This document shows, piece after piece, positions 1,894 through 59,023 of a DNA stretch of 64,000 nucleotides; the stretch's first letter is position 1; each line of letters begins with the position of its first letter. Origin of the DNA: Armatimonadota bacterium (GTDB lineage Bacteria > Armatimonadota > SYMT01). Below the pieces are notes generated by a model. The model searched no databases. It was not told the DNA's origin and was given only the letters and a program-made list of their open reading frames with translations. The position numbers and the translations under genes were made by a program. The stretch covers positions 288,001 through 352,000 of the forward strand of contig JAWLHY010000002.1 of assembly GCA_041690135.1 (NCBI GenBank). Reading direction: 5' to 3'.

Positions 1894-2739
1894 TTACCGG
1901 CCGAGGCCTGGCAGGTCCGTCCACGATTCTACCTGGTTGACGAGTCGCAGCCACTCCTCCACCTGAGCCAGGTTCTCTTCGCTCTCGATGCGGCGGTGGA
2001 TCGCCGGATCCGGCTCTCCCAGCCGGGGTACACCGACGAGCAGCAGTGCTCGCACCGTTCCGGTCAGTTGACCTTCTTCAAGAATCGCTTGGTAAGTATC
2101 TGACTCTCGCATAGCAGGGATCCCCCTGAACAATTGTGCCACTCTTTCCCGCGGATGACGCAGGCCCATTAAGACGAAGGTATCCGTCCAGAAATCCTTT
2201 CTCTCTTCGGGTGAAGCCTCGGCCACCAGGCGTGTTTCTATCTTACGTAATACCTCGGTAAGCCGCCCGGTAGCCTCATCTGTGATCGGTGCCAAAGGCA
2301 GTGTAGCCAATGACCCGGACAGGACGTCGTCCAACCGCAGAGACCAGGCACGCAGCACATGATACTGAAGCATGTGCACATGCCCGCTCTCAGGGACTAC
2401 GACGCGATACTCGCCAGTGAGGCTGGAGTGGTCCGCTTCCGGGCGCAAGACGACCAGCACGGAGTCCACCGGCAGCGCATGGCGCCGGTGGTGGATGCCG
2501 TTGTAGTTCATGGCTCGGGCCAGGATGCTCGGGTCCCAGGATGCGAACGCCTCGAAGTGGACGACAAACGGGTCTGCGCGCTCCAGCAACACGACTTTAT
2601 CGGCTGCGCCGGAGACGGTGGAGATATCGGCATCCACCAGGGTCGGGCGTCCCGCAATCGGTCCCAGGGCGAGACGAACCCAACCCGCCGGATCTCGTTC
2701 CAGCAGGTCTTTGAAGACCGAGTCGAACGGCTTGGACAA
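1894..2739 (-). CDS. Rpn/putative-transposase-like PD-(D/E)XK family protein
   Basis: KPFDSVFKDL start, AD.V...VHFE motif, LPLAP, MRESDTYQAILEEG C-terminal motif; TTG start; locally lower GC. Confidence 0.65.
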   Translation of the reverse strand: MSKPFDSVFKDLLERDPAGWVRLALGPIAGRPTLVDADISTVSGAADKVVLLERADPFVVHFEAFASWDPSILARAMNYNGIHHRRHALPVDSVLVVLRPEADHSSLTGEYRVVVPESGHVHMLQYHVLRAWSLRLDDVLSGSLATLPLAPITDEATGRLTEVLRKIETRLVAEASPEERKDFWTDTFVLMGLRHPRERVAQLFRGIPAMRESDTYQAILEEGQLTGTVRALLLVGVPRLGEPDPAIHRRIESEENLAQVEEWLRLVNQVESWTDLPGLGR

Positions 2740-2752
2740 CCTGGATTCTCCG

Positions 2753-4102
2753 CTACACCAGCCCGGTGAGGGTTCCTCTGGCGTCCTGGAACTTTTCGGT
2801 TTCCACGCCCATCTTCTGGATCACCGTGAGGAGCACGTTGGAGAGCGGTGGGTGTTTTTCGGGGTCGTGGGCGAGGTGCCGGCCGTGCTTCAGACCCCAG
2901 GCGGCGCCTCCCGCTACCAGCAGCGGCAGGTTCCGGGGGGAGTGGTCCCCGCGCTCGCCGCTGTTCATCCCGGAGCCGTACACGACCATGGTGTGGTCCA
3001 GCATGGTGCGGCCGCCCTCTTCCGTGGACCGCAGGAACGTCAGGAACCGGGCCAGGCGCTCGATGTGGAAGCGGTCGATGGCGGCGAGCTTCCGGAGCAT
3101 GCCGGCGTCTCCGCCGTGGTGGGAGAGCTCATGGTGGTTCTCACCGCCCCCGCCGAAGCCGCCCGCTTCGCGGGACCACTCGAAGGTGATGACTCGGGTG
3201 GTATCGGTGAGGAAGGCGAGGTAGGAAAGCTCCAGCATTACGTCCAGCCACATGGGGCGGTCGTGAGCGTTGCCGGGCTGGCTGTTCAACTGGAGGCCGG
3301 CGGCGGAGACCTTCGGCTTCGGGACGTCGATCCACGCGACCTGCCGCTGCACCCGCAGCTCCGTCTCGCGCACGGAGGCGAGGTATTCCGCCAGCTTCGC
3401 CTGATCCGCTTTGCCGAGCTTGTTCTCCAGCGCTTTCGCCTCCGCCAGCACGTCGTCCAGGATGCTCCGCTTCTCGGCGTAGCGCCGGAGGGCGGCCTCG
3501 CGGGAAGCGGCGTCGTCCGGGACGAACAGCCGCTCGAACAGGCGCTGCGGGTTGTTCTCGCAGGGCAGCGGAGTGCCGTTCCGGTCGAAGGCGAGGGTGT
3601 GGCTGTGGAGTGCGCTGCCGGTGCCGGACATGTCGCCCAGCTCCAGCGAGGGGAAGCGGGTCTGCGCGCCGACCTTGTCCGCGATCACCTGGTCGGCGGA
3701 GATGGTGTTGGTGTAGTCCTTGCCGGGCACCGCGCGCAGGTTGGCGCCGGTGAGCCAGGTGTCCGCGCCGGAGTGGCCGCCGGTCGCGTTCGGGTGCCCG
3801 AGCCCGCTCAGCACGCTGAAGGCGGCCCGGTATGGGGTGAGAGGCTGCAGGGTGGGGGAGAGCGCGTAGCCCGCCCCCTGCGCGGCCGGCACCCACTCCT
3901 TGATGTTCACGCCGTTCGGCACGTAGCAGAAGATGACGCGCGGCACGGGCTTCGCGCCGGACTTCGCCAGCGGCTTGAAGGTCGAGGGCGCCCCGTAGGT
4001 GGCGGGCGGCAGCATCGCCTCCAGGAGCGGCAGCGCGAGCGCCGCGCCGGCGCCGCGGAGCATGGTGCGCCGGGAGAGGGGCCGGCAGTTGATCCGATGC
4101 AT
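2753..4102 (-). CDS. DUF1552 domain protein
   Basis: SRRTMLRGAGAALALPLLEAM Tat-like leader, YVPNG, TRFPSLEL, H.LSHH; ATG at 4102 with AAGGAG RBS; downstream of DUF1592 gene. Confidence 0.9.
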   Translation of the reverse strand: MHRINCRPLSRRTMLRGAGAALALPLLEAMLPPATYGAPSTFKPLAKSGAKPVPRVIFCYVPNGVNIKEWVPAAQGAGYALSPTLQPLTPYRAAFSVLSGLGHPNATGGHSGADTWLTGANLRAVPGKDYTNTISADQVIADKVGAQTRFPSLELGDMSGTGSALHSHTLAFDRNGTPLPCENNPQRLFERLFVPDDAASREAALRRYAEKRSILDDVLAEAKALENKLGKADQAKLAEYLASVRETELRVQRQVAWIDVPKPKVSAAGLQLNSQPGNAHDRPMWLDVMLELSYLAFLTDTTRVITFEWSREAGGFGGGGENHHELSHHGGDAGMLRKLAAIDRFHIERLARFLTFLRSTEEGGRTMLDHTMVVYGSGMNSGERGDHSPRNLPLLVAGGAAWGLKHGRHLAHDPEKHPPLSNVLLTVIQKMGVETEKFQDARGTLTGLV

Positions 4103-4115
4103 GTCCGGGATCTCC

Positions 4116-6833
4116 TTACTGGGTCGTGAACGGCTCCGAGGTGACGATGGCGGCAATCAGGGACCGGAGCGTGTAGCGGCTGCGCTTCATCCGGTCGACG
4201 TAACCACGGACCGCCGGCCGGTCGGAGAAGCCGAGCTCCCGTCCCAGGGCGTAGGTGGTGAGCTGCGAGGCCAGCGTGTCCAGGAAGCGGTCTTCCTGCT
4301 TCAGGAGCTGGGCCTGAAGCCCTTCGACCCCCTGGATCACCGTGCCGTCCGGCATCTTCGCGGAGGCGTCGATCAGCGGGTCGTTGGCCTCGATGCGCCC
4401 CTGGTAGCCGTGACCCTCGCGGTCGCGCCATTCCCCGGCCGCGTTGAAGTTCTCCAGCGCGAAGCCGAGCGGGTCGATCTTGTCGTGGCACCGCGCGCAG
4501 GCCGGGGCTTCGCGGTGGATCTGCAGGCGCTGGCGGACCGTCGCCTTATCGATCCCCGGCACCTTCGCCGCGATCTCGCCCACGTTCGCCACCGGCAGGC
4601 CGGGGTCGCTTCCCAGCAGCGTCCGCAGGATCCACACGCCGCGGGTCACGGGAGAGGTCCGCGTGCCGTTGGAGGTGATGCTGTGGATGGAAGCCTGGGT
4701 CACCAGCCCGCCGCGGTGCGAGCCGGGCGGCGCGGGCACCCGGCGGATGGCATCGCCCTTCACTCCGGGAATACCGTAGAAGCGGGCCAGGCGCTCGTTG
4801 ATGGTGACGAAGTCGCTCTTGATCAGGCTGCGCGCGTTGAGGTCGTGGCGCAGGATCTCGGCGAAGAAACCTTCCGTCTCCCGCACTATCGAAATCTCCA
4901 GGTGGCGGTCGTACTCCGGGTAGAGGTTCTTCGCGGGCGGGTTCGCCCCCACCTTCCGCAGCCCGAGCCACTGCCCGGCGAAGTTCTTCACGAACGCCTC
5001 GCTCTTGGGGTCGGCGAGCATGCGGTCCACCTGCTGCGCCAGCACGGCCGGTTTTGCCAGGTCTCCGCTCGCGGCAAGGCGGAAGAGGGTGTCGTCCGGC
5101 ATCGACGACCAGAGGAAGTAGGAGAGGCGAGAGGCTAGCTCATACGGGTTCAGCCGGCGGGGCTTCGCAGCGGGCGGCTCCGGCTCCACCAGGAACAGGA
5201 AGTGGGGCGAGGCGAGCACCGCCGCCAGGGGAGTTTTGATTGCCTCCACGAACGAGGGCTTCATGGAGCGGACGCGGGTGAAGAGGGCGACCTTCGCCTC
5301 CACCTCGGCGGGTTGCACGGGGCGCCGGTAGGCCCGGGTCATGAACTGTGTGAGAACCGCCCGGGCGCGGGCGGTCTCGTCCTTTGCGGTCGCCGGCGCT
5401 TCCCCCAGCACCTTCCGGTGGCTGGCGGGCGGCCAGGCGGGATGGATCGGGCCCTCCAGTTCCAGCCAGTCGACCAGCAGGGCGGGGCGCGCGAAGGCAT
5501 CGTGGCCCTGCATCCAGAAGTTCTCCAGGACCCGCGGCACCTCGTAGGCGTAATCGAACTCCAGCCCCGCCTTCAGGGGCGTAAACCGCGCGCGGATCTC
5601 GTAGACCTTCGGTGCGTTCTCCGGGGCGTCGATGTCCATCTCCGCGATGACCCGGGGGGCACTGCCGAGGTGCTGGGTCACCTTCACCCGCGGCGGACCG
5701 TAGTCGTACATCCGGTGCGTGGCGAAGTGCTGGAGGTCTCGCTCGAACTGGCGCTCGTGGTAGACCTTACCGGCCGGGTTCTCCGCCAGTTGCTTCTCCA
5801 GCCGCTGGGTCAGGATCCGGCGGGCCGAGGCCACCACGTCGGCGCGTCCCGGCACCCGGCCGGCGGCGCGAAACCGGACGATGTACTCCCCTTCCACGGG
5901 CACGCGGAAGTCGCGGAACCCGATCCCCTTGTCCCACGACTCGTGGTGGACCACCGTAAAGCCGTTCTCGGTGGGGTTGTTGCCGTCGTTGAGCAGGATG
6001 TTGTGCCCATCCCGCCGCACCCGCAGGCGGTCCATCCCCATCGTGTTCTCTTCCGGCTCGAAGTGCCACTTGAAGCCCGCGGGTTGGGGCCCCTCCACCA
6101 GGGCGCGGTCCAGGATCTTCCGCGCGGCCGCGTAGTACAACTCCAGTTGGAGCGGGGAGAGGGTGAGCGCCTGGCCGATGTTGTCGAACCCGCCGGCCGG
6201 GGGATCCTCGGGAAAATCGTCTGCCGGTTGGAAGTCGACGCCCACCAGGTCCCGGATCGTGTGGTTGTACTCCGCCCGGTTGAGGCGGCGCAGCACCACC
6301 CGGGTCGAGCGCTTCGCGATTTCTGCCCGCGCCAGCTCCGCCCGCACCCGCTCCACGAAGGTGCCCGCCGCCTCCGCGGAAGGCTGCTTCTCACCGGTGG
6401 GCGGCATCTGCCCGTTGTTGACCGCCGCGACGACCTCCGCCCACTTCGCGTGGATGCCGGGGTCGGCGAAATCCGCCGCCAGGGTATCGAGCCGCAGCTT
6501 GGCAAATTGCTTTTCCGGCCCGTGGCACCGGATGCAGTGCTCCTTCAGGAACGGTTGCACCGACGGTGTAAACGTGGCGGTGCTGACCGCCGCGGACTTG
6601 ACCGGTGTGTTGGACTTCCCTGTCGCTGGCGGCTTCTGGGCCGCGGTTGCCTTCTTCGGCGCCTGGTACATGGCGCAGGCCGGCAGCACTGCCAGCAAAA
6701 AAGCGCCCACAGCCAGCACCCCGCCGGGGGACCTACCGTGCCTCGGAGAGTCGCGCCGGGCCTGAAAGGGAAGCTCGTTCCGAAGATCCGAACGTCGTGG
6801 GAAGGTTTGCTGCGGTCGGTTTGAAAGAGGCAT
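4116..6833 (-). CDS. DUF1592/DUF1588/DUF1587/DUF1585/DUF1595 protein with planctomycete-type cytochrome c domain
   Basis: CIRCH and CARCH heme motifs, LRRLNRAEYNHTIRDL, YELASRLSYFLWSSMPD, TSPVTRG; start uncertain (6833 chosen). Confidence 0.88.
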   Translation of the reverse strand: MPLSNRPQQTFPRRSDLRNELPFQARRDSPRHGRSPGGVLAVGAFLLAVLPACAMYQAPKKATAAQKPPATGKSNTPVKSAAVSTATFTPSVQPFLKEHCIRCHGPEKQFAKLRLDTLAADFADPGIHAKWAEVVAAVNNGQMPPTGEKQPSAEAAGTFVERVRAELARAEIAKRSTRVVLRRLNRAEYNHTIRDLVGVDFQPADDFPEDPPAGGFDNIGQALTLSPLQLELYYAAARKILDRALVEGPQPAGFKWHFEPEENTMGMDRLRVRRDGHNILLNDGNNPTENGFTVVHHESWDKGIGFRDFRVPVEGEYIVRFRAAGRVPGRADVVASARRILTQRLEKQLAENPAGKVYHERQFERDLQHFATHRMYDYGPPRVKVTQHLGSAPRVIAEMDIDAPENAPKVYEIRARFTPLKAGLEFDYAYEVPRVLENFWMQGHDAFARPALLVDWLELEGPIHPAWPPASHRKVLGEAPATAKDETARARAVLTQFMTRAYRRPVQPAEVEAKVALFTRVRSMKPSFVEAIKTPLAAVLASPHFLFLVEPEPPAAKPRRLNPYELASRLSYFLWSSMPDDTLFRLAASGDLAKPAVLAQQVDRMLADPKSEAFVKNFAGQWLGLRKVGANPPAKNLYPEYDRHLEISIVRETEGFFAEILRHDLNARSLIKSDFVTINERLARFYGIPGVKGDAIRRVPAPPGSHRGGLVTQASIHSITSNGTRTSPVTRGVWILRTLLGSDPGLPVANVGEIAAKVPGIDKATVRQRLQIHREAPACARCHDKIDPLGFALENFNAAGEWRDREGHGYQGRIEANDPLIDASAKMPDGTVIQGVEGLQAQLLKQEDRFLDTLASQLTTYALGRELGFSDRPAVRGYVDRMKRSRYTLRSLIAAIVTSEPFTTQ

Positions 6834-9312: not shown

Positions 9313-9792
9313 TTACTTGATGCGGATCTCGCCGATGCGGGTCCCTTCGGGCAAGTTCTTCACCTGTTGGTGGACCTGCCCCAGCACGGAAAAGTGCACC
9401 TGGATATCCGTGGGCACTAGGTTGTCGCCCGAGTACTCCCCGCCGAGCGCGGGCGGGTGCTGGAAGCTGTAGATCTGACCGGGCGCCAGTGTTTTCCCGG
9501 AGGCACGCAAGTTCAGGATCAGTGACGGCACGAAGGAATCCATCACGAATTCCCGGTCGCCCAGCAGCGCTCGGAACTCGTCCACGGAGTCGGCGACTTT
9601 CTCCAGCGCACCGCCGCCCACGTCCAGCAGGTGAACGGTTCCGTCCTCCGTATCCTGGAGGTAGGCGTCACCCAGGGCCGAAAGCAGGATCGGCTGTTTT
9701 GCGGAACCGATGAGCCAGTGCCAATCGGTAAGGAGCGCTTCCCGGTCGAGATGCTGGAAGTTGACCGTGAGGTCGTTCATGGTGATCGGCAT
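9313..9792 (-). CDS. DUF1851/Tdi1-like toxin-immunity protein
   Basis: WHWL...LSALGD.YL, L.PGQIYSF.HPPALGGEY..DNL motif; ATG 9792 preferred. Confidence 0.7.
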   Translation of the reverse strand: MPITMNDLTVNFQHLDREALLTDWHWLIGSAKQPILLSALGDAYLQDTEDGTVHLLDVGGGALEKVADSVDEFRALLGDREFVMDSFVPSLILNLRASGKTLAPGQIYSFQHPPALGGEYSGDNLVPTDIQVHFSVLGQVHQQVKNLPEGTRIGEIRIK

Positions 9793-9989
9793 GGAAAGCC
9801 TCCTTCTGTGCCGGCTGCGACCGGCCATCGTTCGCCGCAGCGGGCAACTCCCCGCATGGTAGTGAACGATCATTCCATCTTTCGGCCCGGCGACGGGGAA
9901 CTCCTCTCTCGGCAAACCTCCTCCGGGGGAGTGGCTGACGCTGGACGCCGGTGTCACTTACCACCCGTGCCTTCAGAGTACAGCCTGCC

Positions 9990-10336: not shown

Positions 10337-11113
10337 ATGTCCCTTAGGTTCCATGCGGCGATCGCCGAACTGCTGGGCATCGTCCCCGTGCCCGCCCCCG
10401 AAAGAATGGCCGCCCTCGAGCAGCGCGAAACGGTGTGTAAAACCCGTTTCCCCGCGTCCGTCCGGGAGTGGCTTTCGCTACCGGGTGTCGAGAGCATCTT
10501 TCATGACCGGAGCAACGACGACCACCTCGAACCGGTGGACGCCCTGGGTGATCCGGGGGAGACGGCCCAGGGCTGGCTCCGCGTGGCCAAAGAGAACCAG
10601 TGGGTGGTGGCCTGGTACGTGCGGCTCGATGAAGGAGAGGACCCGCCCGTCTACCACAACAACGACGAGTGGAATGAAGACCTGGCGCTTACGGACTGGC
10701 AAGAGACTTCCCCCTCCTTCAGCGCCTTCATCTTCGATATGTTGGCCGACGACTGCTTCGGCCGGGGTTGCTCCGGTCTGCTCCTGTCGGCGGTGGATCG
10801 GCTTCCCGGCCCGGAGGAGTTGAAAGCTCTGGAGAGCTGGTTCCGCAAAGGCCCCGTTACGTGCACTCCCGACTACAGCGTGTACCGCTTTGCCGACGCG
10901 CAGACGCTGGTCACGATCGAAGCCGGTTCCGCGTTCGAATTGCCGCCGGGAAAGGCGAAGTGGCGTCTTCGCACGGCTGATGCGGAGGCGCTCTTCAGTG
11001 CCGGCCGGAAGCTGCGGGGTCTCGGGACGATGGCCGAAACGCTGAGCGCGCAGGACTGCACCCCGGAAGCCAGGGGGTGGTGCGACTGGGTCCTGGAGCG
11101 ATTGCGGCAATAG
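10337..11113 (+). CDS. SMI1/KNR4 (SUKH)-like immunity protein
   Basis: LEQRE...RFPASVREW, ENQW..AWYVRLD..EDPPVY, SFSAFI pattern; GAGGA RBS. Confidence 0.65.
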   Translation: MSLRFHAAIAELLGIVPVPAPERMAALEQRETVCKTRFPASVREWLSLPGVESIFHDRSNDDHLEPVDALGDPGETAQGWLRVAKENQWVVAWYVRLDEGEDPPVYHNNDEWNEDLALTDWQETSPSFSAFIFDMLADDCFGRGCSGLLLSAVDRLPGPEELKALESWFRKGPVTCTPDYSVYRFADAQTLVTIEAGSAFELPPGKAKWRLRTADAEALFSAGRKLRGLGTMAETLSAQDCTPEARGWCDWVLERLRQ

Positions 11114-11141
11114 CCATCCAGGCGCCCACTGGAAAAACTGG

Positions 11142-11171
11142 TTGACGGAGGTTCACGGGGTGAGGTATTCT
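11142..11171 (+). promoter_or_regulatory. sigma70-like promoter for the Y RNA/rsr transcript
   Basis: TTGACG (11142-47), 18 bp spacer, TATTCT (11166-71); structured RNA begins about 6 nt downstream. Confidence 0.55.
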
Positions 11172-11267
11172 AAAATCTTCCGCTCCGAAAGGACGAGACT
11201 GGGCTGGTGAAAGCCCGGTGGGCGGGAGGTCGGTTCGCCGCCGTTAAGGACGGCTCCGGCTCGATAC

Positions 11268-11428
11268 GCTGAACGTAGCTCAACGGGAAGAGTCCTGCGC
11301 CTTTGCAAAAGACCCCTTCCCCTCGGCGCCCCTTGCCCGGTAACGGGCCGTAGTCAGAGGGTTATCTACACTGAGCCCATCGCTAAAGGCTCGCGAGGAG
11401 ATGCAGGTTCGAATCCTGCCGTTCAGCA
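11268..11428 (+). ncRNA. tRNA-like Y RNA (YrlA-like) in canonical tRNA order, long stem replacing the anticodon arm
   Basis: Acceptor GCTGAACG/CGTTCAGC; TA-GCTC-AACGGGAA-GAGT D-arm; GCAGG-TTCGAAT-CCTGC T-arm; about 105-nt insert with GCCGTAG..GAGGGTTATC; about 100 bp upstream of the TROVE gene. Confidence 0.75.
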
Positions 11429-11440
11429 TCGTCGGAATCA

Positions 11441-11510
11441 GGAAGCGGGCCGGAGCGCCTGGGTTATCGAGCAGACGATCAACCCCCAGACGCACCACTT
11501 GCCTGCTTCC
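11441..11510 (+). ncRNA. Second Y-RNA-like bulged hairpin (YrlB-like RNA or rsr 5' UTR element)
   Basis: GGAAGCGGGC/GCCTGCTTCC closing stem; GCCGGAG and GGGTTATC motifs shared with the upstream RNA; pyrimidine-rich 3' tail. Confidence 0.5.
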
Positions 11511-11533
11511 CCTTTCCTTTCGGAGTGGTGGCC

Positions 11534-13189
11534 ATGAGCTATCTGCAGAACGTTCTCTCCACCCGGCAAACGCCGCAGTCCGCCCCGATTCCCGGCACCG
11601 ACCAGGTTCCCAACAGCGCGGGCGGTTTTGCGTGGGCCGTCGACGACTGGACCCGGCTTGACCGCTTTCTGATCCTTGGTAGTGAAGGCGGCTCCTACTA
11701 CGCCGGCGAGCAGAAGCTGACGCTGGAGAACGCGGCTACCGTCAAACGCTGCGTGGAACTCGACGGCGAGCGGGCGGTCCGCCGCATCGTGGAGATCAGT
11801 GACGCCGGGCGCGCTCCCAGGAACGATCCCGCGATCTTTGCGCTGGCGGTGGCGTCGGCCTGGGGGGAAGCCTCCGCGCGGTCCGCGGCCTTCCGTGCCC
11901 TTCCCCGGGTTTGCCGGACCGGCACGCACCTGTTTCACTTCGCCGGTTACGTAGAGGGGATGCGGGGCTGGGGACGGGGCCTCCGCACGGCGGTGGCTTC
12001 CTGGTACTCGGAGCGGCCGGCGCGGGATCTCGCCTACCAGGCGGTGAAATACGGGCAGCGGGATGGCTGGAGCCATCGCGACCTGCTGCGGCTGGCGCAC
12101 CCGAAGGCGGAGCCCGATTCCGCGCACAACGCCCTCTACCGCTGGATCGTGAAGGGCTGGGAGGGCGTTGATGAGGAGCCCCATCCGGACCCGGACCTGC
12201 GCCTCATCTGGGCCTGCGAGCGGGTGAAGCGCGTCGGGACCCGCGAGGAGGTGGCGGCGCTGGTTGCCGAGTACGGCGTGCCGCGGGAGGCGGTACCCAC
12301 CTACTGGTTGGGGCAGGCGGTCGTGTGGGAGGCGCTCCTCCAGGGGATGCCGATGACGGCTCTCATCCGGAACCTGGCCACCCTCACCCGGGTGGGCCTG
12401 CTCACCCCGCACGCCGACGCCACCCGCCGGGTGGTGGCGCAGTTGACGGATGGAGAGCGACTCCGCCGGGCGCGGGTTCATCCCATCCAGGTGCTCTCGG
12501 CGCTCCGCACTTACGCCCAGGGGCACGGTGAGCGGGGCAATCACCAATGGGCGCCGGTGGCCCAGGTGGTGGATGCTCTCGACGCGGCCTTCTACACCGG
12601 TTTCGGCAACGTCTCGCCCACCGGCAAGCGTTGGATGCTGGCCCTGGATGTTTCCGGGTCGATGGCGTGCGGCCTGATCGCGGGGGTTCCCGGCCTCACA
12701 CCGCGGATCGCTTCCGCGGCAATGGCCCTCATCACGGCGGCGGTGGAACCGAATCATAGCCTGGTTGCCTTCACCGCGGGGCAAGGTGGTTACGGCGGAC
12801 AGTGGGGCGGCGGAGTCTCCGGCCTCACGCCCCTGGCCCTATCCCCCCGACAGCGGTTGGACGATGTGGTCAAGACGGTCGCCGCCCTTCCCATGGGCGG
12901 GACCGACTGCTCGCTGCCGATGCTCCACGCTACGAAGCACCGGATCCCCGTCGACTGCTTTGTGATTTACACGGACAGCGAGACGTGGCACGGGCAGATC
13001 CACCCCGCCCAGGCGCTCCGGGAGTACCGGGGCCGGATGGGCATTCCGGCCCGCCTGGTCGTCTGTGGGATGCTCTCCAACGGCTTCACCATCGCCGACC
13101 CGGACGATGCCGGCATGCTCGACGTCGTCGGCTTCGACACCGCCACCCCCAACCTGATCAGCGATTTCGCCGTGGGCAACGGCGCGTAA
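11534..13189 (+). CDS. rsr: Ro60/Rsr RNA-binding protein (TROVE + vWA)
   Basis: QVPNSAGGFAW..DDW.RL.RFLILGSEGGSYY, KY.QRDGWSHRDLLRLAH, MP.TALIRNL, DVSGSM MIDAS, GGTDCSLPM, YTDSETW, GMLDVVGFD. Confidence 0.96.
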   Translation: MSYLQNVLSTRQTPQSAPIPGTDQVPNSAGGFAWAVDDWTRLDRFLILGSEGGSYYAGEQKLTLENAATVKRCVELDGERAVRRIVEISDAGRAPRNDPAIFALAVASAWGEASARSAAFRALPRVCRTGTHLFHFAGYVEGMRGWGRGLRTAVASWYSERPARDLAYQAVKYGQRDGWSHRDLLRLAHPKAEPDSAHNALYRWIVKGWEGVDEEPHPDPDLRLIWACERVKRVGTREEVAALVAEYGVPREAVPTYWLGQAVVWEALLQGMPMTALIRNLATLTRVGLLTPHADATRRVVAQLTDGERLRRARVHPIQVLSALRTYAQGHGERGNHQWAPVAQVVDALDAAFYTGFGNVSPTGKRWMLALDVSGSMACGLIAGVPGLTPRIASAAMALITAAVEPNHSLVAFTAGQGGYGGQWGGGVSGLTPLALSPRQRLDDVVKTVAALPMGGTDCSLPMLHATKHRIPVDCFVIYTDSETWHGQIHPAQALREYRGRMGIPARLVVCGMLSNGFTIADPDDAGMLDVVGFDTATPNLISDFAVGNGA

Positions 13190-13193
13190 ATTA

Positions 13194-13236
13194 GAACAAA
13201 AGTTTTATGACGACGCCGGAAGTACTGCGGTATTAT
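13194..13236 (+). promoter_or_regulatory. Candidate retron promoter with adjacent LexA-type box
   Basis: GAAC-AAAA-GTTT (13194-13205) abutting ATGACG (13207-12), 18 bp spacer, TATTAT (13231-36). Confidence 0.45.
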
Positions 13237-13238
13237 GT

Positions 13239-13503
13239 CGGTGGAAAGGGCAGTCTGGGGAGCGGGTTGTTGCTAGCATTCCGCCTGCGGCGTTTCGCCG
13301 TGGCTGCAGTGAAGCTCGCTTCACAGCACCGGCCACCGATGCCACTCAGCTCGGCAATAGGGGTACCCCTCTTATTCGCTGCGCTGGGGCGACGTGGTCC
13401 ACTACGAATAAGAGGGGTACCCCTACCGCCGAGCCTACAGTGATCGGTCCCGGTCCTCGGTGGGTAAGTAGCACTCTTCCGCTCTCCAGGCGCCTTTCCA
13501 CCG
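13239..13503 (+). ncRNA. Retron ncRNA (msr-msd)
   Basis: Terminal inverted repeats 13239-13275 / 13469-13503; putative branching G13276 in TAGC; msr hairpins CGGCGTTTCGCCG and GTGAAGCTCGCTTCAC; msd hairpin with perfect 21-bp stem 13358-78/13405-25; retron RT downstream on the same strand. Confidence 0.85.
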
Positions 13504-17151: not shown

Positions 17152-17251
17152 GTGACGGCTGCAGTCCAATCCATACGGACACATGTGCTGCAGCCGATCA
17201 GCCTGGCTTCCGCGGTTCGAAATACGCATCACGAATCACGCATCAAGACCT

Positions 17252-19186
17252 ATGCAGTTCACCCAATCCTATTCTCATCCGAGTACGGCCAGTATGGGGC
17301 CGGAGGGGCTCCGGCTGGACGTGGCCGCGGAGCAGCACCGGCCGCCGGTGTTCTTGCAGGCGATGGTGCGGGAGAGCCTCTCCTACGCCCGGCTGATGCT
17401 GGCGCTCTACCAGGTGGTGCAGGGGGATCTGCGCTCGAAGACGCGGGATCACAGCGCCTACCAGGAGTGGGTGCAGCAGCGTTATTTGGACGAGCTCTCG
17501 CCGCAACTGGCGGCCAACCGCGCGCGGATTCCGGGCCTGCTGCAGCAGCGGGACGAGTTGAGCGGCCGGATCTCGGAGCTGCATAAGGAAATCCGCGAGC
17601 TGGAGAAGCGGACCTCCGGCGCGGAGTTCCACAGCGCGAAACAGAGGTACTTCAACTGGCTGTGGAAGCACGACAAGGATGCCTGGTGGGTACTCGATCC
17701 CGTGGTGAGCGTCCATCCGGATGCCCTCATCTTCGAAGTCTTCTCCCAGGATGAATCGAGTTATGGCCGGGTCACGGTCCCCTCGGACCGGCTGGACGTG
17801 CTGGGGAACGTCGCCTACGGGACCACCAATATCGACTTCAGCCGCGCGCTGGCCCGCGAGATGGAGCGGGTGCGGAACTACCGTCCCGCCTGGCTCCAGA
17901 TCGGCGCGGAAGGCGTGACGATGGCCACTGGTGCCGGGGAAGCGGTGGAGAAGAAGATCGATCTGCCCCCGTCCTGGGTGCGCGGCTTCCTGCAGGTCCA
18001 GTCCGCGGCGGCGTTCGGCACCGTCGATCTGACGCTCAGCGCGGAGACGGTCGCCGAAGTGCTCTCCCTGCTGCGCCGGCAACGCGAGGAGGGCAGCCCG
18101 CGCTCCCTCCGGTTCCGTCTCGCCCCCGGCGAGTTGCCGGTCCTGATCGTGGAGCCGTGGAACGTCGAAATCCGGGAGTCGCAGCATGTGTATCGCGGCG
18201 ACCACCGGGGCGAAATCCGGCTGTGGGGGCGCCGGCGCCTGGCGGTCCTGGAGAATGTCCTGCCGCATGCCGAGGCGGTGCAGGTGCGACTGCTGGGCAC
18301 CGGGATGCCCTCCTATTGGAGCCTGCACCTGGGCAGCCACCGGTTCGACCTGGGTCTTTCCGGCTGGACCCGCAACGATTGGGCCAGGGCGGCCCGGTTC
18401 GATCTGCTGGCCTCCACCGGCGCCGTTTCGGAGCGGGATTTTGGAATTGCGGCCGCGAAACTGGAGGAGCGCCTGCGCCTGACCCCGGAGGAGCTGGCTA
18501 CGGTGGGCGGTCTCCCGCAGTCGGCCGCTGCCGCGGCCCTCCAGCAGCTCTGCGCGCGCGGGCAGGCGATGTTCGACCCCACCACGGGCGCCTACCGCTG
18601 GCGACCCTTGTTCGCCCACCCGGTGGAGCTGGAAAGCGACGAGGATAAGCGCCTGGCTTACGCGCGCCGCGTGCTGGAAGGCAACCGGGTGAAGTGGACC
18701 GGTAAGCCGGAAACAGTGCAGGACCGGGTGCGCCACACCGCCACCGTGCGCGGCGAGCGGGGCGAGAAGAACTTCCGGGTGATCCTGGAGCTGGACGCGG
18801 ACGGCCGGGTGCAGTACGCCGAGTGCACCTGTAGCTGGCACCGGCGGGAAAAGCTGCGCAAGGGCCCCTGCGGGCACATCCTGGCGGCCACGGCCCTGGC
18901 TTCCCAACTGGTGGAAGCAGGCACCGGAGGGCCGATCAACGCCCCCGATCCGCAGCGCTTCGCCGGCAAGACCTTTGTATTTACCGGGGCCCTCACCCGC
19001 TTCACCCGGGAAGAGGCGCACGCCATGGTGGAACAGGCCGGCGGAAAGCCCGGCAGCGACGTCAGCCGGAACACGGATTACCTGGTGGCGGGAGAGCGCG
19101 CCGGCTCCAAGCTCACCCGCGCCCGTTCCCTGAACATCCCGGTGCTGACGGAAGAAGAGTTCTTGAACATGCTTCAAGGGCGGTAG
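17252..19186 (+). CDS. Retron-associated SWIM zinc-finger protein with C-terminal BRCT domain
   Basis: LDPVVSVHPD..IFEVFSQDESSYG, SWVRGFLQVQSA, CTC..x..GPCGH SWIM motif, GKTFVFTG.L..FTREEA...GG..SVS..TDYLVAG..AGSKL..A BRCT; ATG 17252. Confidence 0.85.
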   Translation: MQFTQSYSHPSTASMGPEGLRLDVAAEQHRPPVFLQAMVRESLSYARLMLALYQVVQGDLRSKTRDHSAYQEWVQQRYLDELSPQLAANRARIPGLLQQRDELSGRISELHKEIRELEKRTSGAEFHSAKQRYFNWLWKHDKDAWWVLDPVVSVHPDALIFEVFSQDESSYGRVTVPSDRLDVLGNVAYGTTNIDFSRALAREMERVRNYRPAWLQIGAEGVTMATGAGEAVEKKIDLPPSWVRGFLQVQSAAAFGTVDLTLSAETVAEVLSLLRRQREEGSPRSLRFRLAPGELPVLIVEPWNVEIRESQHVYRGDHRGEIRLWGRRRLAVLENVLPHAEAVQVRLLGTGMPSYWSLHLGSHRFDLGLSGWTRNDWARAARFDLLASTGAVSERDFGIAAAKLEERLRLTPEELATVGGLPQSAAAAALQQLCARGQAMFDPTTGAYRWRPLFAHPVELESDEDKRLAYARRVLEGNRVKWTGKPETVQDRVRHTATVRGERGEKNFRVILELDADGRVQYAECTCSWHRREKLRKGPCGHILAATALASQLVEAGTGGPINAPDPQRFAGKTFVFTGALTRFTREEAHAMVEQAGGKPGSDVSRNTDYLVAGERAGSKLTRARSLNIPVLTEEEFLNMLQGR

Positions 19187-19193
19187 AAATCCG

Positions 19194-20621
19194 ATGTTAA
19201 CTCCTACACGACAGGATAGAGCCTACTGGCGGGAGCGGGTCCGGGAGATCGGGCTCACCGGGGTGATCCGGGAGGAGATGACCCGGCTGGGGTTCTGGCC
19301 GCCGAACGAGGAAGTGGGGCGGCAGGCTGCGGAGGCGATGGCGGAGCTGCGGGTGCGGTACCGCGATCTGGCGGAACTCCGGGAACAGCTACAGCGTCTC
19401 GAGCAGGAGTTGGGGGATGCCCAGAACATCGCCGCGATGATCGCCGAGATTCGCAAGCGGCGGATTGAGCGGGTGCGCGCGCAGCGGGAAGTCCGCCGGG
19501 AGCAGCGCGCCCGGGAGCGCGAGGAGCGGCGACGGCAGGATGAAGAATGGCGCCGGACCACCTTGCCGTTCCTGGGTCGCGGCGTCTCCGGCGGGTTGAT
19601 CTACACCGGTGGTGACCCGGTGCGGCTGGAGTCGCTGGGCCTGCCGGTCGTGGAGACGGCGGTGGATCTGGCGGCGGCGATGGAGATCCCGGTGGAGGAG
19701 CTGACCTGGCTCACCTATCACCGGGGCGCGGCCCGCACGGACCACTACCATCGCTTTACGATCCCGAAGCGGCATGGGGGTGTAAGGGTCATCTCCTCGC
19801 CCAAGCGGAACCTGCGCGCCGCCCAGCGCTGGATCCTGGCCTCCATCCTGGCGGAGCAGGAGGTCCATCCCGCGGCGATGGCGTTCCGCCCGAAACGCTC
19901 CATCGTCGATAACGCGGTGGCGCATGCGGGCCGGGCGGTGGTCGTACGCGTGGACCTGAAGGACTTCTTTCCCTCCATCACCTTCCGGCGGGTCAAGGGG
20001 CTGTACGAGTCGTTCGGCTACAACGAGGGGATCTCGACCCTCCTGGCGCTCCTCTCCACGGAGCCGCCCCGCGTGGCTCTGATGGTGGACGGCCAGCGCC
20101 GTTTCGTCAGTCTCGGGGATCGCCAGCTACCCCAGGGCGCCTGTACGTCCCCCGCCATCACGAACCTGCTTTGCCGGAAGCTGGACCGTCGCCTGGAGCG
20201 CGCCGCATCCGCGTTCGGGTTTACCTACACCCGCTATGCCGACGACCTGGTCTTCTCTCACGACCGGGAGGAGGCGCCGGTGGGAGCCATGCTGACCCTG
20301 GCGCGCTCCATCCTGTCCGACGAGGGCTTCACCGTCAACGAGGAGAAGACCGCGGTGATGCGGCCCCAGCACCGGCAGGTAGTGACCGGGATTGTCGTGA
20401 ACGGCGAGCCGGCCCGGGTCTCCCGGCGGGACCTGCGCCGGTTCCGGGCTTTCCTGCACCACTGCGAAACCGAGGGCTTCGCAGTGATGTCGCAGCGTCT
20501 CGGCCGGGATGCCCGCGCCTACGCGGCCGGCTATCTCTCCTTCATCCACATGGTCAACCCGGAACAGGAAGAGCGGATCCGCGCGCGGCATCCCTGGCTC
20601 TCACGCTGGGGTGAGGCGTAA
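19194..20621 (+). CDS. Retron-type reverse transcriptase (Mx162/type XIII-like)
   Basis: IPKRHGGVR.I..P, NAVAH (region X), DLKDFFPSI, LPQGACTSP, YADD, VVTG (region Y); N-terminal coiled-coil extension; no fused effector domain. Confidence 0.93.
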   Translation: MLTPTRQDRAYWRERVREIGLTGVIREEMTRLGFWPPNEEVGRQAAEAMAELRVRYRDLAELREQLQRLEQELGDAQNIAAMIAEIRKRRIERVRAQREVRREQRAREREERRRQDEEWRRTTLPFLGRGVSGGLIYTGGDPVRLESLGLPVVETAVDLAAAMEIPVEELTWLTYHRGAARTDHYHRFTIPKRHGGVRVISSPKRNLRAAQRWILASILAEQEVHPAAMAFRPKRSIVDNAVAHAGRAVVVRVDLKDFFPSITFRRVKGLYESFGYNEGISTLLALLSTEPPRVALMVDGQRRFVSLGDRQLPQGACTSPAITNLLCRKLDRRLERAASAFGFTYTRYADDLVFSHDREEAPVGAMLTLARSILSDEGFTVNEEKTAVMRPQHRQVVTGIVVNGEPARVSRRDLRRFRAFLHHCETEGFAVMSQRLGRDARAYAAGYLSFIHMVNPEQEERIRARHPWLSRWGEA

Positions 20622-51785: not shown

Positions 51786-53663
51786 ATGAAAGCCACCTTT
51801 CGACTGGCGTCTCTCACTCTTTCGCTGGCCTGCGCCGGCGGTTCCGTCGCCTCAGCCCAACCGGCTCCCGGGAGCGGCATGGCTCACCCGGAACTCTTCC
51901 TGGCCCTGGGGCACCGGGATTTGCCGGGCGTGAAGGCGCTCCTGCACTCCGGCGCCAGCCCGAACGCTCGCAACACCATCCAGATGACCGCGCTCATGAC
52001 CGCGGTCGGGGTCGGCGACCCGGAAGCGGTGAAGAGCCTGCTCGCCGCCGGCGCCGAAATTGACGCGGCCAGCCCGTTCGGCACCGCGCTCACTTTCGCC
52101 CTCATGGAAGGCCGTTCGGAAATCGCGCGCTTCCTGATCGAAAAGGGCGCCGGCATTGCTTCGGGGCGGCCGGACCGGATCAGTAGCCTGATGCTGGCGG
52201 CTCGTGCCGGTGATACGGAGATCATCCGCCTGCTGCTGGCCAAGAAGGCCGATCTCAACGCGGTGGATAACCACGGTTCGACGGCCCTTTCGTACGCGGC
52301 ACGGCACGGCCGCCCTGAGGCGGTCCGGGCACTGCTGGCCGCCGGCGCCAAGATCGATGTCGCCGACACCGACGGGTGGACAGCCCTGACCCACGCGGCG
52401 GTCAACGGGCACACCGCGATCGTGGAGAGCCTTCTCCAGAAGGGCGCGAACCCGAACGCTCGGGACAAGCGCGGCCGCACGCCGCTGCTGGCCGCCGCCA
52501 GCTACGGCGACTCTCCCCAGGTGATCGGCGCCCTCCTGGCCCGCGGCGCGGTCCGGGACGCGAAGGATGCGCAGGGGCGCACTGCGCTCCAGTTGGCTGA
52601 AGGTCGCGGATACACAGAGACGGCGAAGTTGCTCCGCGAGAAGGGTGCTCGCATGGCACTGGCGGCGCTGCCGGCTGTCCGCACCCCTCGCCAGGCGGCG
52701 GAACTGAGCCTGCGGCAGGTGGAGAACTCCATGCAAATCTTCGCAAAGCGCACCGGCTGCGCTTCCTGCCATCACGAGGGGATCGCGCGCTTCACCACCG
52801 GCTTCGCCCGGGCGCGGGGCTACCAGATCAGTGAGGCGTTTGCCCGCGAGCAGGAGAAGCGGGTGACCGGCGAGTTCGAGCGGATGCTGCCCCTGCTGCG
52901 GAAGGCGGTGGAGAACCCGGCGGAGATCAAGAATGTGCCGGCGATAGACCTGGGCGACTTCGCCCCTGCTACGGGATCGCTGCTGCTCGGCCTGGGCGAG
53001 CACGGAACGACCGCCTCGGAGGCCCTATCCGCCGCGGCGATGGTCCTGGCCCGCATCCAGACCCCCGAGGGGGATTGGCGCTTCGGCCTGCAGCGGGTGC
53101 CGGTTCAGTCCAGCTTCTTCTCCAGCACCGCAATGGCGGTGCGGGCGCTGAAGAACTACGCCCCGAAGGCACATCAGCCGGAGGTCGCCGGGCGGATCGC
53201 GCGGGCGAAGCAGTGGTTGGCCTCGGCGCCGGTGAAGGACAACGAGGACCGCGCCTTCCGCTTGCTCGGGTTGAAGTGGGCCGGCGCTACGCCGGAAGAG
53301 CGGCGCAAAGCGCTCGAGGAGTTGCGCGCGACCCAGCGACCGGACGGAGGCTGGGCGCAGTTGGACACGCTGAAGAGCGACGCGTATGCTACCGGCTTGG
53401 CGCTCTTCGCCCTCAACCAGGGCGGCGAACTGGCGGCCTCGGATCCCGTCTACCAGCGCGGCGTGCAATACCTGCTGCGGACGCAGGAGGATGACGGAAC
53501 CTGGTACGTCTACAAGCGCGCGATCCCGGCGAATAACTACTTCGATACCGAGTTCCCCTATGGGCAGTCGCAATACATCTCGCACATGGCGGCCAGTTGG
53601 GCGAGCATGGCGCTGATGCTGGCAGCAGAGGCTCCGGTCGCGCAGCAGGCGGCGGTCCGGTAA
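51786..53663 (+). CDS. Secreted ankyrin-repeat protein with CxxCH motif and prenyltransferase/squalene-cyclase-like repeats
   Basis: About seven G.TAL..AA..G repeats, CASCHH, Q.PDGGW, SDAYATG, Q..DGTW. Confidence 0.82.
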   Translation: MKATFRLASLTLSLACAGGSVASAQPAPGSGMAHPELFLALGHRDLPGVKALLHSGASPNARNTIQMTALMTAVGVGDPEAVKSLLAAGAEIDAASPFGTALTFALMEGRSEIARFLIEKGAGIASGRPDRISSLMLAARAGDTEIIRLLLAKKADLNAVDNHGSTALSYAARHGRPEAVRALLAAGAKIDVADTDGWTALTHAAVNGHTAIVESLLQKGANPNARDKRGRTPLLAAASYGDSPQVIGALLARGAVRDAKDAQGRTALQLAEGRGYTETAKLLREKGARMALAALPAVRTPRQAAELSLRQVENSMQIFAKRTGCASCHHEGIARFTTGFARARGYQISEAFAREQEKRVTGEFERMLPLLRKAVENPAEIKNVPAIDLGDFAPATGSLLLGLGEHGTTASEALSAAAMVLARIQTPEGDWRFGLQRVPVQSSFFSSTAMAVRALKNYAPKAHQPEVAGRIARAKQWLASAPVKDNEDRAFRLLGLKWAGATPEERRKALEELRATQRPDGGWAQLDTLKSDAYATGLALFALNQGGELAASDPVYQRGVQYLLRTQEDDGTWYVYKRAIPANNYFDTEFPYGQSQYISHMAASWASMALMLAAEAPVAQQAAVR

Positions 53664-53796
53664 GAAAAACTGCCGGCCAGTCTTGAAAAGGAGAATGGGA
53701 GAATGGGGGATGCCTGTAGCAGGGCGCGCCCATTCTCCCTCTCTTCACTTCTCCCATTCGCACGGATCATCGGAGCAGCCTTAGCGGGGCCACAGC

Positions 53797-54117
53797 TCAA
53801 AGACGCTGTCCGCACTTCTTGCAGAACCGGCTGGCGACATCGTTGGGGGTGCGGCACACGGGGCACGGCATGTTGACCTCCGGAATGTCGCCGGGACGGG
53901 TCAGGTAGTCGCCGCGCAGATACTGAAGGCGACCTTCCGCGTAGGCGGTGGTGGTAAAGCCCGTCAGCACGATTCCCAGGCCGCCCAGGGCGACCCAGTC
54001 ACTGCCGATGGGCCACCCCAGGGCGGCTACTCCCGCCCCCGCGCACATCACGACGTAGCCCACGCCGCGGACCTGCCGCCAGTACTCCAGATCGTGCTTG
54101 TCCATGGTCAACAGCAT
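53797..54117 (-). CDS. Small membrane protein with C-terminal zinc ribbon
   Basis: Two TMs then CPVC..N....FCKKCG; start uncertain. Confidence 0.6.
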   Translation of the reverse strand: MLLTMDKHDLEYWRQVRGVGYVVMCAGAGVAALGWPIGSDWVALGGLGIVLTGFTTTAYAEGRLQYLRGDYLTRPGDIPEVNMPCPVCRTPNDVASRFCKKCGQRL

Positions 54118-58949: not shown

Positions 58950-59023
58950 CGGGGTGTGGCGCAGCTTGGTAGCGTGCCTGCTTTGGGAGCAGGAGGTCGC
59001 AGGTTCAAATCCTGTCGCCCCGA
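58950..59023 (+). tRNA. tRNA-Pro(TGG)
   Basis: CGGGGTG/CGCCCCG acceptor, CCTGC-TTTGGGA-GCAGG anticodon arm, GGTTCAAATCC T-loop; CCA not encoded. Confidence 0.96.

Follow-up and report, generated by a model that had tools for sequence, protein, structure and literature searches.

Why the RNA partner of the Ro60 protein copies a tRNA is the question raised by a locus of an Armatimonadota bacterium (GTDB lineage SYMT01; assembly GCA_041690135.1, contig JAWLHY010000002.1, positions 288,001 to 352,000). In this stretch of 64,000 nucleotides (nt), hereafter the window, a tRNA-shaped element with no anticodon arm lies upstream of rsr, the gene for the Ro60 orthologue. The Y RNAs known as YrlA begin and end in the Ro stem, their acceptor is closed by a loop, and they have been characterised as "resembling circularly permuted tRNAs" (Chen 2014; Wang 2018) and as circularly permuted tRNA mimics without a free CCA end (Wang 2018). 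The element of the window shows the order of a true tRNA. We consider it likely that it is a Y RNA gene of the YrlA kind in tRNA order, in which a Y module joined by a GUAA tetraloop replaces the anticodon loop. The evidence comes from covariation in relatives and from the distribution of the module across genomes.

Anatomy of the element

The features of the element, all in window coordinates, are as follows. R1 and R2 are the covariance models described in the next section.

11269-11426, + strand: whole tRNA-shaped element (sequence reading); G11268 and C11427 are a possible outer pair.
11269-11275, + strand: acceptor 5' strand CUGAACG; 7 of 7 pairs with CGUUCAG at 11420-11426, the homologous pairs covarying in relatives.
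11276-11277, + strand: U8 and A9 (sequence reading).
11278-11293, + strand: D arm, GCUC / AACGGGAA / GAGU (sequence, descriptor scan, R1 alignment).
11294-11300, + strand: 5' side of an anticodon-stem remnant, followed by a mini hairpin at 11301-11311 (minimum-energy fold).
11320-11361, + strand: permuted Y-RNA module (fold, R2 match, motif match to the Rfam stem-bulge RNA, or sbRNA, consensus).
11320-11327 with 11353-11361, + strand: upper Y helix, separated by internal loops from the Ro-site helix.
11332-11335, + strand: CUUG, on the 5' strand of the Y module.
11335-11339 with 11344-11348, + strand: Ro-site helix, GCCCG with CGGGC; with the cap GUAA (11340-11343) it forms the cap unit GCCCG-GUAA-CGGGC, 11335-11348.
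11349, + strand: unpaired C with GUAG next, within the Y module.
11360-11366, + strand: GGUUAUC motif, also found in the adjacent small Y RNA, in canonical YrlA and in sbRNAs of nematodes (including supplementary text 2 of Chen 2014).
11373-11392, + strand: variable-arm-like hairpin GAGCC...GGCUC (minimum-energy fold).
11393-11398, + strand: 3' side of the anticodon-stem remnant (minimum-energy fold).
11403-11419, + strand: T arm, GCAGG / UUCGAAU / CCUGC (sequence, descriptor scan, R1 alignment).
11420-11426, + strand: acceptor 3' strand CGUUCAG, followed by position 73 (C11427); AUCG comes after C11427 and no CCA is encoded.

A first-pass annotation, made from the sequence of the window, had recognised acceptor, D and T arms in tRNA order, and its coordinates proved right within one base. 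The acceptor strands are 144 nt apart, at opposite ends of the element, and no D arm is found 3' of the acceptor 3' strand in the element sequence. D arm and T arm are spaced by 109 nt. An anticodon arm with a 7-nt loop is absent, and a branched insert of 109 nt occupies its place. Within the insert, the order of the Y module is CUUGCCCG, the GUAA cap, and then CGGGCCGUAG...GGGUUAUC; the cap is flanked by ...CCCCUUCCCCUCGGCGCCCCUU on the 5' side and CGUAGUCAGAGGGUUAUC on the 3' side. The cap unit joining both strands is present as the annotation described it. The same annotation read 11294-11398 as a bulged stem of 105 nt, a description that has to be abandoned: folding gives a branched insert made of the stem remnant, the mini hairpin, the Y module and the variable-arm-like hairpin. 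The 5' side of the remnant and the mini hairpin (11294-11311) are not kept in relatives. In close relatives, differences inside the element are located at 11372-11380, in or beside the variable-arm-like hairpin, and at 11414, in the T loop. The helix typical of Y RNAs, GGNCCG opposite CUUGNCC with an unpaired C, is found in the element; it is not built from the 5' and 3' termini of the RNA, as a tetraloop closes the termini side.

Scans of the window single out the element by shape and leave it unnamed. A descriptor composed of T arm, 7-bp acceptor and D arm matched the 64-kb window only once at a length of 96 nt or more, and this match is the element. ARAGORN called no tRNA on it, in agreement with the missing anticodon that had been proposed, and its only call in the window was a tRNA-Pro at 58950, likewise the only Rfam match at gathering scores. 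Acceptor, D and T arms notwithstanding, the element scores below the gathering threshold of the Rfam tRNA model (RF00005). At E up to 10, no Rfam family, intron families included, matched the element in 10900-11700. This includes the YrlA family (RF02553; gathering score 69 bits), and the element is also absent from the 11 matches to RF02553 found in its own genome at E up to 10. One of those matches, on C16, consists of two tandem tRNAs, a type of false positive that Chen 2014 warned of, and was rejected.

Relatives, covariation and linkage to rsr

A BLAST-type DNA search of 61 related genomes was too insensitive, and a single relative, in genome G005 of the same family, was convincing. Seven RNA modules stand there in a row upstream of rsr (locus L007, 1340-2240). 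Two of them, 121 and 122 nt long, are in tRNA order, and their GCCCG/CGGGC helix has a GAGA cap; the remaining modules are Y RNAs in ordinary order, three of them small (~70 nt) and two longer, Y-like and beginning with GAGAUGGGCCGCUGCG. A search with the Rsr protein supplied 48 loci from other lineages. The descriptor found 54 long tRNA-shaped matches in 50 loci, and 32 of the 54, spread over 19 loci, combine zero acceptor mismatches with a CUUG-type motif, a cap and then GGGCCG. Four more elements with long caps occur in four further loci. All these elements lie on the rsr strand, in loci whose labels include Chloroflexia, Caldilineaceae, Anaerolineae, Chthonomonadaceae, Nannocystaceae and several Actinomycetota.

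An alignment of 27 elements that excludes the window (A2) was examined for covariation. RNAalifold recovers five helices: acceptor (7 bp), D (4), upper Y (5), cap-proximal Ro-site (5) and T (5). Compensatory changes are seen at 21 of the 26 pairs and in all five helices; pair counting gives 98.1% of cells paired, compared with 37-51% in slid controls, and none of 500 shuffles reaches any of the measures. Covariation extends to each of the 5 pairs in the upper Y helix, and each of the 7 acceptor pairs varies on both sides. The acceptor pairing spans the element from one far end to the other, so its covariation is direct comparative evidence for an open acceptor and a tRNA-order topology, as the first-pass annotation had supposed. 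GGGCCG, CUUGCC and GGUUAyC are near-invariant both in A2 and in a further alignment, A3. The Rfam tRNA model calls many of the shorter relatives tRNAs, above its gathering score (for instance at 59.2, 57.4 and 50.2 bits), and ARAGORN found no anticodon at the elements in the loci of six relatives. The tRNA-order topology explains both the tRNA calls on shorter relatives and the failure of YrlA models to find these loci.

Two covariance models were built, each from 27 relatives with the window excluded. The whole-element model, R1, matches 11267-11429 at 42.4 bits (E 2.3e-8). Since R1 also scores ordinary tRNAs at 44-61 bits, equal to the element or above it, it was dropped as a discriminator and the insert-only model R2 was built from A3; only R2 discriminates. 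R2 matches 11320-11374 at 30.0 bits, with an E value of 2e-8 in the window and 2.9e-6 in the whole 9.1-Mb genome, where this is its top match. The second match of the genome (C1:885616-885695, 22 bits) is coding-like, has no tRNA scaffold, and was taken as chance.

R2 was then applied to a sample of 151 genomes of the phylum, with a threshold of E up to 1e-4. The model is positive in 25 genomes and rsr was detected in 34. The overlap is nearly complete on one side: 24 of the 25 R2-positive genomes have rsr, and a match is found in 1 of the 117 genomes without detected rsr, so that the module is carried by 24 of the 34 rsr-bearing genomes sampled. At 21 of the 24 best-match loci rsr is inside the 3 kb fetched (within ~1.5 kb), and the module closely precedes it on the same strand; when second R2 matches are counted, rsr is nearby at 26 of 29 loci. 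A zero-mismatch tRNA scaffold surrounds the module at 18 of the 24 best-match loci according to the strict descriptor. Six loci fail it, and inspection by eye of two of these showed tRNA order as well, their D or T loops being unusual. Among the 48 Rsr loci of other lineages, 43 R2 matches, 18 of them non-seed, occur in 23 loci, and 43 of 43 are on the rsr strand. In locus L027 the element is downstream of rsr (4204-4326, with rsr at 2501-4102).

Long arrays of tRNA genes that end in rsr on the same strand were also observed, in Actinomycetota, Chloroflexota and other lineages (L030, L033, L034, L038, L040, L042, L043, L046, L048, L050, L054, L056 and L063). Among the matches listed, they contain from about 6 to more than 20 Rfam tRNA matches within the 2.5-kb flanks of rsr.

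The relationship with canonical YrlA could be examined in the same phylum. The Rfam YrlA model stays below its gathering score in 151 of 151 phylum genomes and in all 40 Rsr loci scanned (among the matches listed; the best 150 for part of the loci). Sub-threshold matches occur also in 5 of 14 control genomes and were therefore used as leads only. The top one, at 50 bits, is in G123, where YrlA units of canonical closed-acceptor form adjoin rsr. Their order is a 5' strand with GAGGAACCGAAGG..GGGUUAUC, T arm, UUCG-closed acceptor, D arm, and a 3' strand with CCUUGUUCC, ...CCUUGUUCCUC; the seed alignment of Chen 2014 (supplementary text 2) has this same order. The motifs are those of the window, GGGUUAUC before the T arm and CCUUG after the D arm, and both topologies place GGUUAUC on the 5' side of the T arm and CUUG on the 3' side of the D arm. 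Because G123 carries the same motifs in permuted order, the window RNA is an exact circular permutation of the canonical layout. The two forms differ solely in where the circle is cut: at the cap in YrlA, at the acceptor loop in the window RNA. Ten rsr-bearing genomes of the phylum lack an R2 match, and at least three of them (G015, G043 and G123, the one inspected) have a sub-threshold YrlA match near rsr, which suggests that canonical YrlA and the tRNA-order form substitute for each other. Altogether, the element is best filed as a real, conserved RNA gene and a new topological variant of the YrlA class.

Two other loci of the same genome deserve mention. (i). At C4, ~52340-54000 (L011, L074), about nine tRNA-shaped genes are followed by a YrlA-like RNA in canonical order, with a loop-closed acceptor (RF02553, 36.6 bits, under gathering), and by an open reading frame (ORF) of 549 amino acids (aa) that has no Pfam TROVE domain, a weak vWA domain and weak collinearity with Rsr (BLASTP E 0.001). 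The array and the ORF may constitute a second, divergent Ro60-like system. (ii). At C1:1086687-1086810 (L075) lies an element of 124 nt whose D arm, T arm and 3' acceptor strand closely resemble those of the tRNA-Pro of the window. It has no matching 5' acceptor strand, its insert contains GGGCCGGAG...GGGUUAC motifs, and a terminator-like hairpin comes next. This element may be another hybrid of tRNA and Y RNA, away from rsr.

Surroundings, transcripts and 3' ends

The features around the element are the following:

11142-11171, + strand: sigma-70-like promoter TTGACG, 18 nt, TATTCT; 9 of 12 matches, a consensus match only.
11172-11268, + strand: 5' leader with two hairpins; the fold of 11175-11267 has z -2.44, with 4 of 200 shuffles as good.
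11441-11509, + strand: small Y RNA of 69 nt in ordinary order, its ends forming the Ro-site stem (fold and Rfam).
11534-13189, + strand: rsr, encoding the Ro60 orthologue of 551 aa; PF05731 TROVE at 3.7e-48, PF25045 vWA_Ro60 at 3e-62.

The first-pass annotation noted that YrlA RNAs lie next to rsr, and here a gene with TROVE and Ro60-vWA domains starts 107 nt downstream on the same strand. The small Y RNA in between folds better than its shuffles (z -3.57; 0 of 200 as good) and matches RF01656, the Rfam family of nematode stem-bulge RNAs, with 36.5 bits (E 1.1e-5), slightly short of the gathering score of 38. This gathering score is exceeded by its homologues from other Rsr loci, namely L023, L024 (twice), L030 and L032; hence, a family curated on nematodes recognises bacterial Y RNAs. 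Two promoter-like sites were found in the region, with 0.3 expected, and the scan of the region found no terminator-like site before rsr.

Other genes of the window were also noted. Planctomycete-type domains are encoded near the element in this 9.1-Mb assembly. At 17183-20621 (+ strand), a protein of 667 aa has a BRCT domain at its C terminus and stands directly before a 475-aa reverse transcriptase (RVT_1, 4.9e-28). At 9313-9957 (- strand), a 214-aa ORF contains a C-terminal domain of the type VI secretion system (T6SS) immunity protein Tdi1 (9.1e-14). Pfam gave no match for the 258-aa ORF at 10337-11113, which lies immediately upstream of the RNA block.

Sequences of the locus are present in RNA libraries. 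Contigs from three runs of two studies cover 11191-11563, 11194-11469 and 11213-11431; these are contigs that attest presence only, carry no information on RNA ends, strand or level, and may contain DNA. They start at 11191-11213, and one extends from 11191 into rsr (11563). A probable DNA run has a contig over 11095-11245; stretches of 10700-13400 that no contig covers carry no evidential weight. In addition, a 188-nt RNA-library contig (run X5, record 24) matches the window only in the D-arm region, at 11267-11302. Its insert differs from that of the window yet contains CUUGCC, and by its sequence it seems to be a related element in tRNA order from a different organism of that sample.

Signs of tRNA-like 3' ends were looked for in relatives. 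The sequence N-CCA is encoded directly after the acceptor in 11 of 59 unique elements, and four more have an eighth pair, N and CCA. Encoded CCA occurs in 7 of 32 elements, compared with 15 of 230 tRNA-like matches of normal size; because the CCA-bearing copies come from few related genomes, this comparison is not a sound test of enrichment. Pairing between positions -1 and 73 is possible in 44 of 59 elements and in 105 of 204 ordinary tRNAs from the same loci, a modest excess. These counts, of CCA and of position -1/73 alike, are non-independent and only suggestive. In the window, G11268 is able to pair with C11427 as an eighth acceptor pair.

By analogy with known systems, we infer the following course of events. 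Transcription would start from the promoter-like site at 11142-11171 and yield one transcript that contains the leader, the tRNA-order RNA, the small Y RNA and rsr. RNase P would cleave at 11268/11269 and is presumed to remove the 5' leader. The 3' end would be trimmed at ~11427, perhaps by RNase Z, and CCA would be added. The mature product would thus be an L-shaped RNA of ~160 nt, with an acceptor of 7 bp, possibly 8 bp. Rsr would bind the capped bulged helix, GGGCCG opposite CUUGCC, and the tRNA-like body would then serve as the stable effector or tether end, as proposed for YrlA.

An alternative view of the same transcript is that the tRNA-like fold and the Y modules act in cis, as parts of the rsr leader: they would be punctuation for RNase P, feedback sites for Rsr, or both, and no stable RNA would act in trans. 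The position of the elements, just upstream of rsr and on the same strand, speaks for this view, and so do the single promoter-like site before the block, the lack of a terminator-like site found before rsr, and the library contig that is continuous into rsr. However, canonical YrlA and small Y RNAs at the equivalent position are stable and Rsr-bound in the species studied (Chen 2014), and some elements are located downstream of rsr, as in L027. Moreover, the presence of all features of the tRNA tertiary core, together with encoded CCA in some lineages, exceeds the needs of a processing signal. A cis role is therefore improbable.

Weight of the evidence and comparison with known systems

Several observations weigh against a YrlA-kind RNA in tRNA order:

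(i). The folding energy of the insert alone is no better than that of shuffled sequences (z -0.09; 85 of 200 shuffles as good), although the whole element has z -2.44. The case rests, consequently, on comparison and not on thermodynamics.

(ii). Comparison has weaknesses of its own. The seeds of A2 were selected with our own descriptor and motif, which favours structure, and several of them are close kin; related genomes, in general, are non-independent observations. The scores that R1 gives to ordinary tRNAs, and the nature of the library contigs, have been mentioned above.

(iii). Direct likeness between the insert and the small Y RNA is weak. In local alignment of the 5' half of the insert with the second half of the small Y RNA, 2000 shuffles attain the observed score 58 times for the window and 31 times for G005; for the 3' half of the insert and the first half of the small Y RNA, the corresponding figures, 374 and 459 of 2000, are not significant.

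(iv). The first-pass annotation described YrlA RNAs as carrying a helix with a GNCGAA-like Ro motif in place of the anticodon arm. In the window the position is right and the motif is only approximate: where GNCGAAN0-1G is expected, the window has GCCGUAG, with U in place of A. Relative G005b has GCCGAAAG, and the consensus of the family is GGGCCGnnGG. Furthermore, the helix below the unpaired C runs for merely 3-5 bp up to the cap.

Points (iii) and (iv), which include the deviant motif, the short capped helix and the weak pairwise likeness, are also the ground for a second alternative, namely that a tRNA-like RNA linked to rsr carries an insert that does not bind Rsr, and that docks another partner or is merely a stabilising arm. 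We find this very unlikely, as the near-invariant GGGCCG, CUUGCC and GGUUAyC fit both strands of the stem-bulge/Y consensus of Rfam and canonical YrlA, and the module is almost confined to rsr-bearing genomes (24 of 25).

The perfect acceptor, D and T arms, along with the relatives called tRNAs by the Rfam model, might evoke an ordinary tRNA gene interrupted by a removable intron or insertion. Excision would leave no anticodon loop, and an insert of 109 nt is too short for a group I intron. The insert is besides conserved and covarying, tracks rsr, matches no intron family in the scan of 10900-11700, and is accompanied by no anticodon call in the six relatives' loci, all of which makes the interruption of a tRNA gene highly improbable. 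Finally, a decaying pseudo-tRNA or a chance resemblance is hardly credible: the tRNA arrays in or beside which rsr is often found could be a source of degenerate copies, but against this stand an acceptor free of mismatches, compensatory changes in every helix and a presence in 25 of 151 phylum genomes as well as in other phyla.

The reading that the element is a YrlA-kind RNA in tRNA order admits a bolder extension. These RNAs would be Y RNAs of true tRNA topology that tether Ro60 to a molecule handled as a tRNA by EF-Tu, the ribosome, synthetases or repair enzymes. Insertion of a Y module in the anticodon loop of a tRNA would have been the ancestor of canonical YrlA, and YrlA would have arisen by reading tandem arrays from the middle of one unit to the middle of the next (compare the seven-module array of G005). 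Taken jointly, these proposals are speculative and, in our estimation, rather unlikely.

What does the locus tell about the tRNA-like nature of the Ro60 partner? The tRNA-order form is common in several bacterial phyla; Rsr loci labelled Chloroflexota, Chthonomonadaceae, Nannocystaceae and Actinomycetota have it too. So widespread a form implies that the family can do without a closed acceptor. If sequence is a guide, Ro60 can probably bind a hairpin-capped site that extends only 3-5 bp below the bulge. A tRNA-like CCA end, which some lineages encode, may be a common functional feature and not a peculiarity of Mycobacterium smegmatis. The elements also offer single-chain substrates for studies of RNase P, CCA addition, aminoacylation and Ro60 binding.

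Permuted forms had been suspected to have a precedent, a supposition that is borne out in part. In M. smegmatis, RNase P opens the acceptor of YrlA and CCA is added in vivo (Chen 2014; noted in Wang 2018), and processing of some YrlAs toward a more tRNA-like form is a speculation of both papers. A Y RNA that is tRNA-ordered in the genome and capped, on the other hand, was not found in the accessible literature on YrlA, bacterial Y RNA, TROVE and Ro60, and an earlier description may exist. Table S1 of Chen 2014 has matches from Planctomycetes to the closed-acceptor model.

Comparison with known systems places the element as follows:

(i). YrlA (RF02553). The two share an rsr neighbour on the same strand, within the 4 kb used to define YrlA (from the element's end at 11427 to the rsr start at 11534), as well as a tRNA-like domain with T arm, D arm and acceptor, which in the window is supported by the descriptor, the R1 alignment and covariation in relatives. 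In both, a Ro helix replaces the anticodon arm, GGUUAyC precedes the T arm and CUUG comes after the D arm. They differ in their ends: YrlA ends in the Ro stem and has a loop-closed acceptor, whereas the window RNA ends in the acceptor and has its Ro stem closed by a tetraloop. In addition, both strands of the Ro helix are recognisable in the window, whereas just the 5' strand is reported for Salmonella and M. smegmatis by Chen 2014.

(ii). Processed YrlA of M. smegmatis. An open 7-bp acceptor and a CCA end on a Ro-bound, tRNA-like RNA (Chen 2014) are the points in common, the CCA end and Ro binding being predictions for the window RNA. In M. smegmatis the closed loop is cut and two pieces of 65 and 82 nt result; the window RNA would be one continuous chain, and some of its relatives encode CCA.

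(iii). Metazoan Y RNAs, nematode sbRNAs (RF01656) and the small Y RNA at 11441-11509. All have the bulged helix GGNCCG / CUUGNCC and then GGGUUAUC. In these RNAs the 5' and 3' ends pair with each other and there is no tRNA-like domain; the window RNA has the strands reversed and capped.

(iv). Yrn1 of Deinococcus radiodurans. This Y RNA is bound by Rsr, has a T arm and is tRNA-like in some respects, and the window RNA is likewise predicted to bind Rsr. In Yrn1 the Ro stem replaces the acceptor and an anticodon-like arm is present (Chen 2014), whereas the window RNA has a genuine acceptor and bears its Ro module at the anticodon position.
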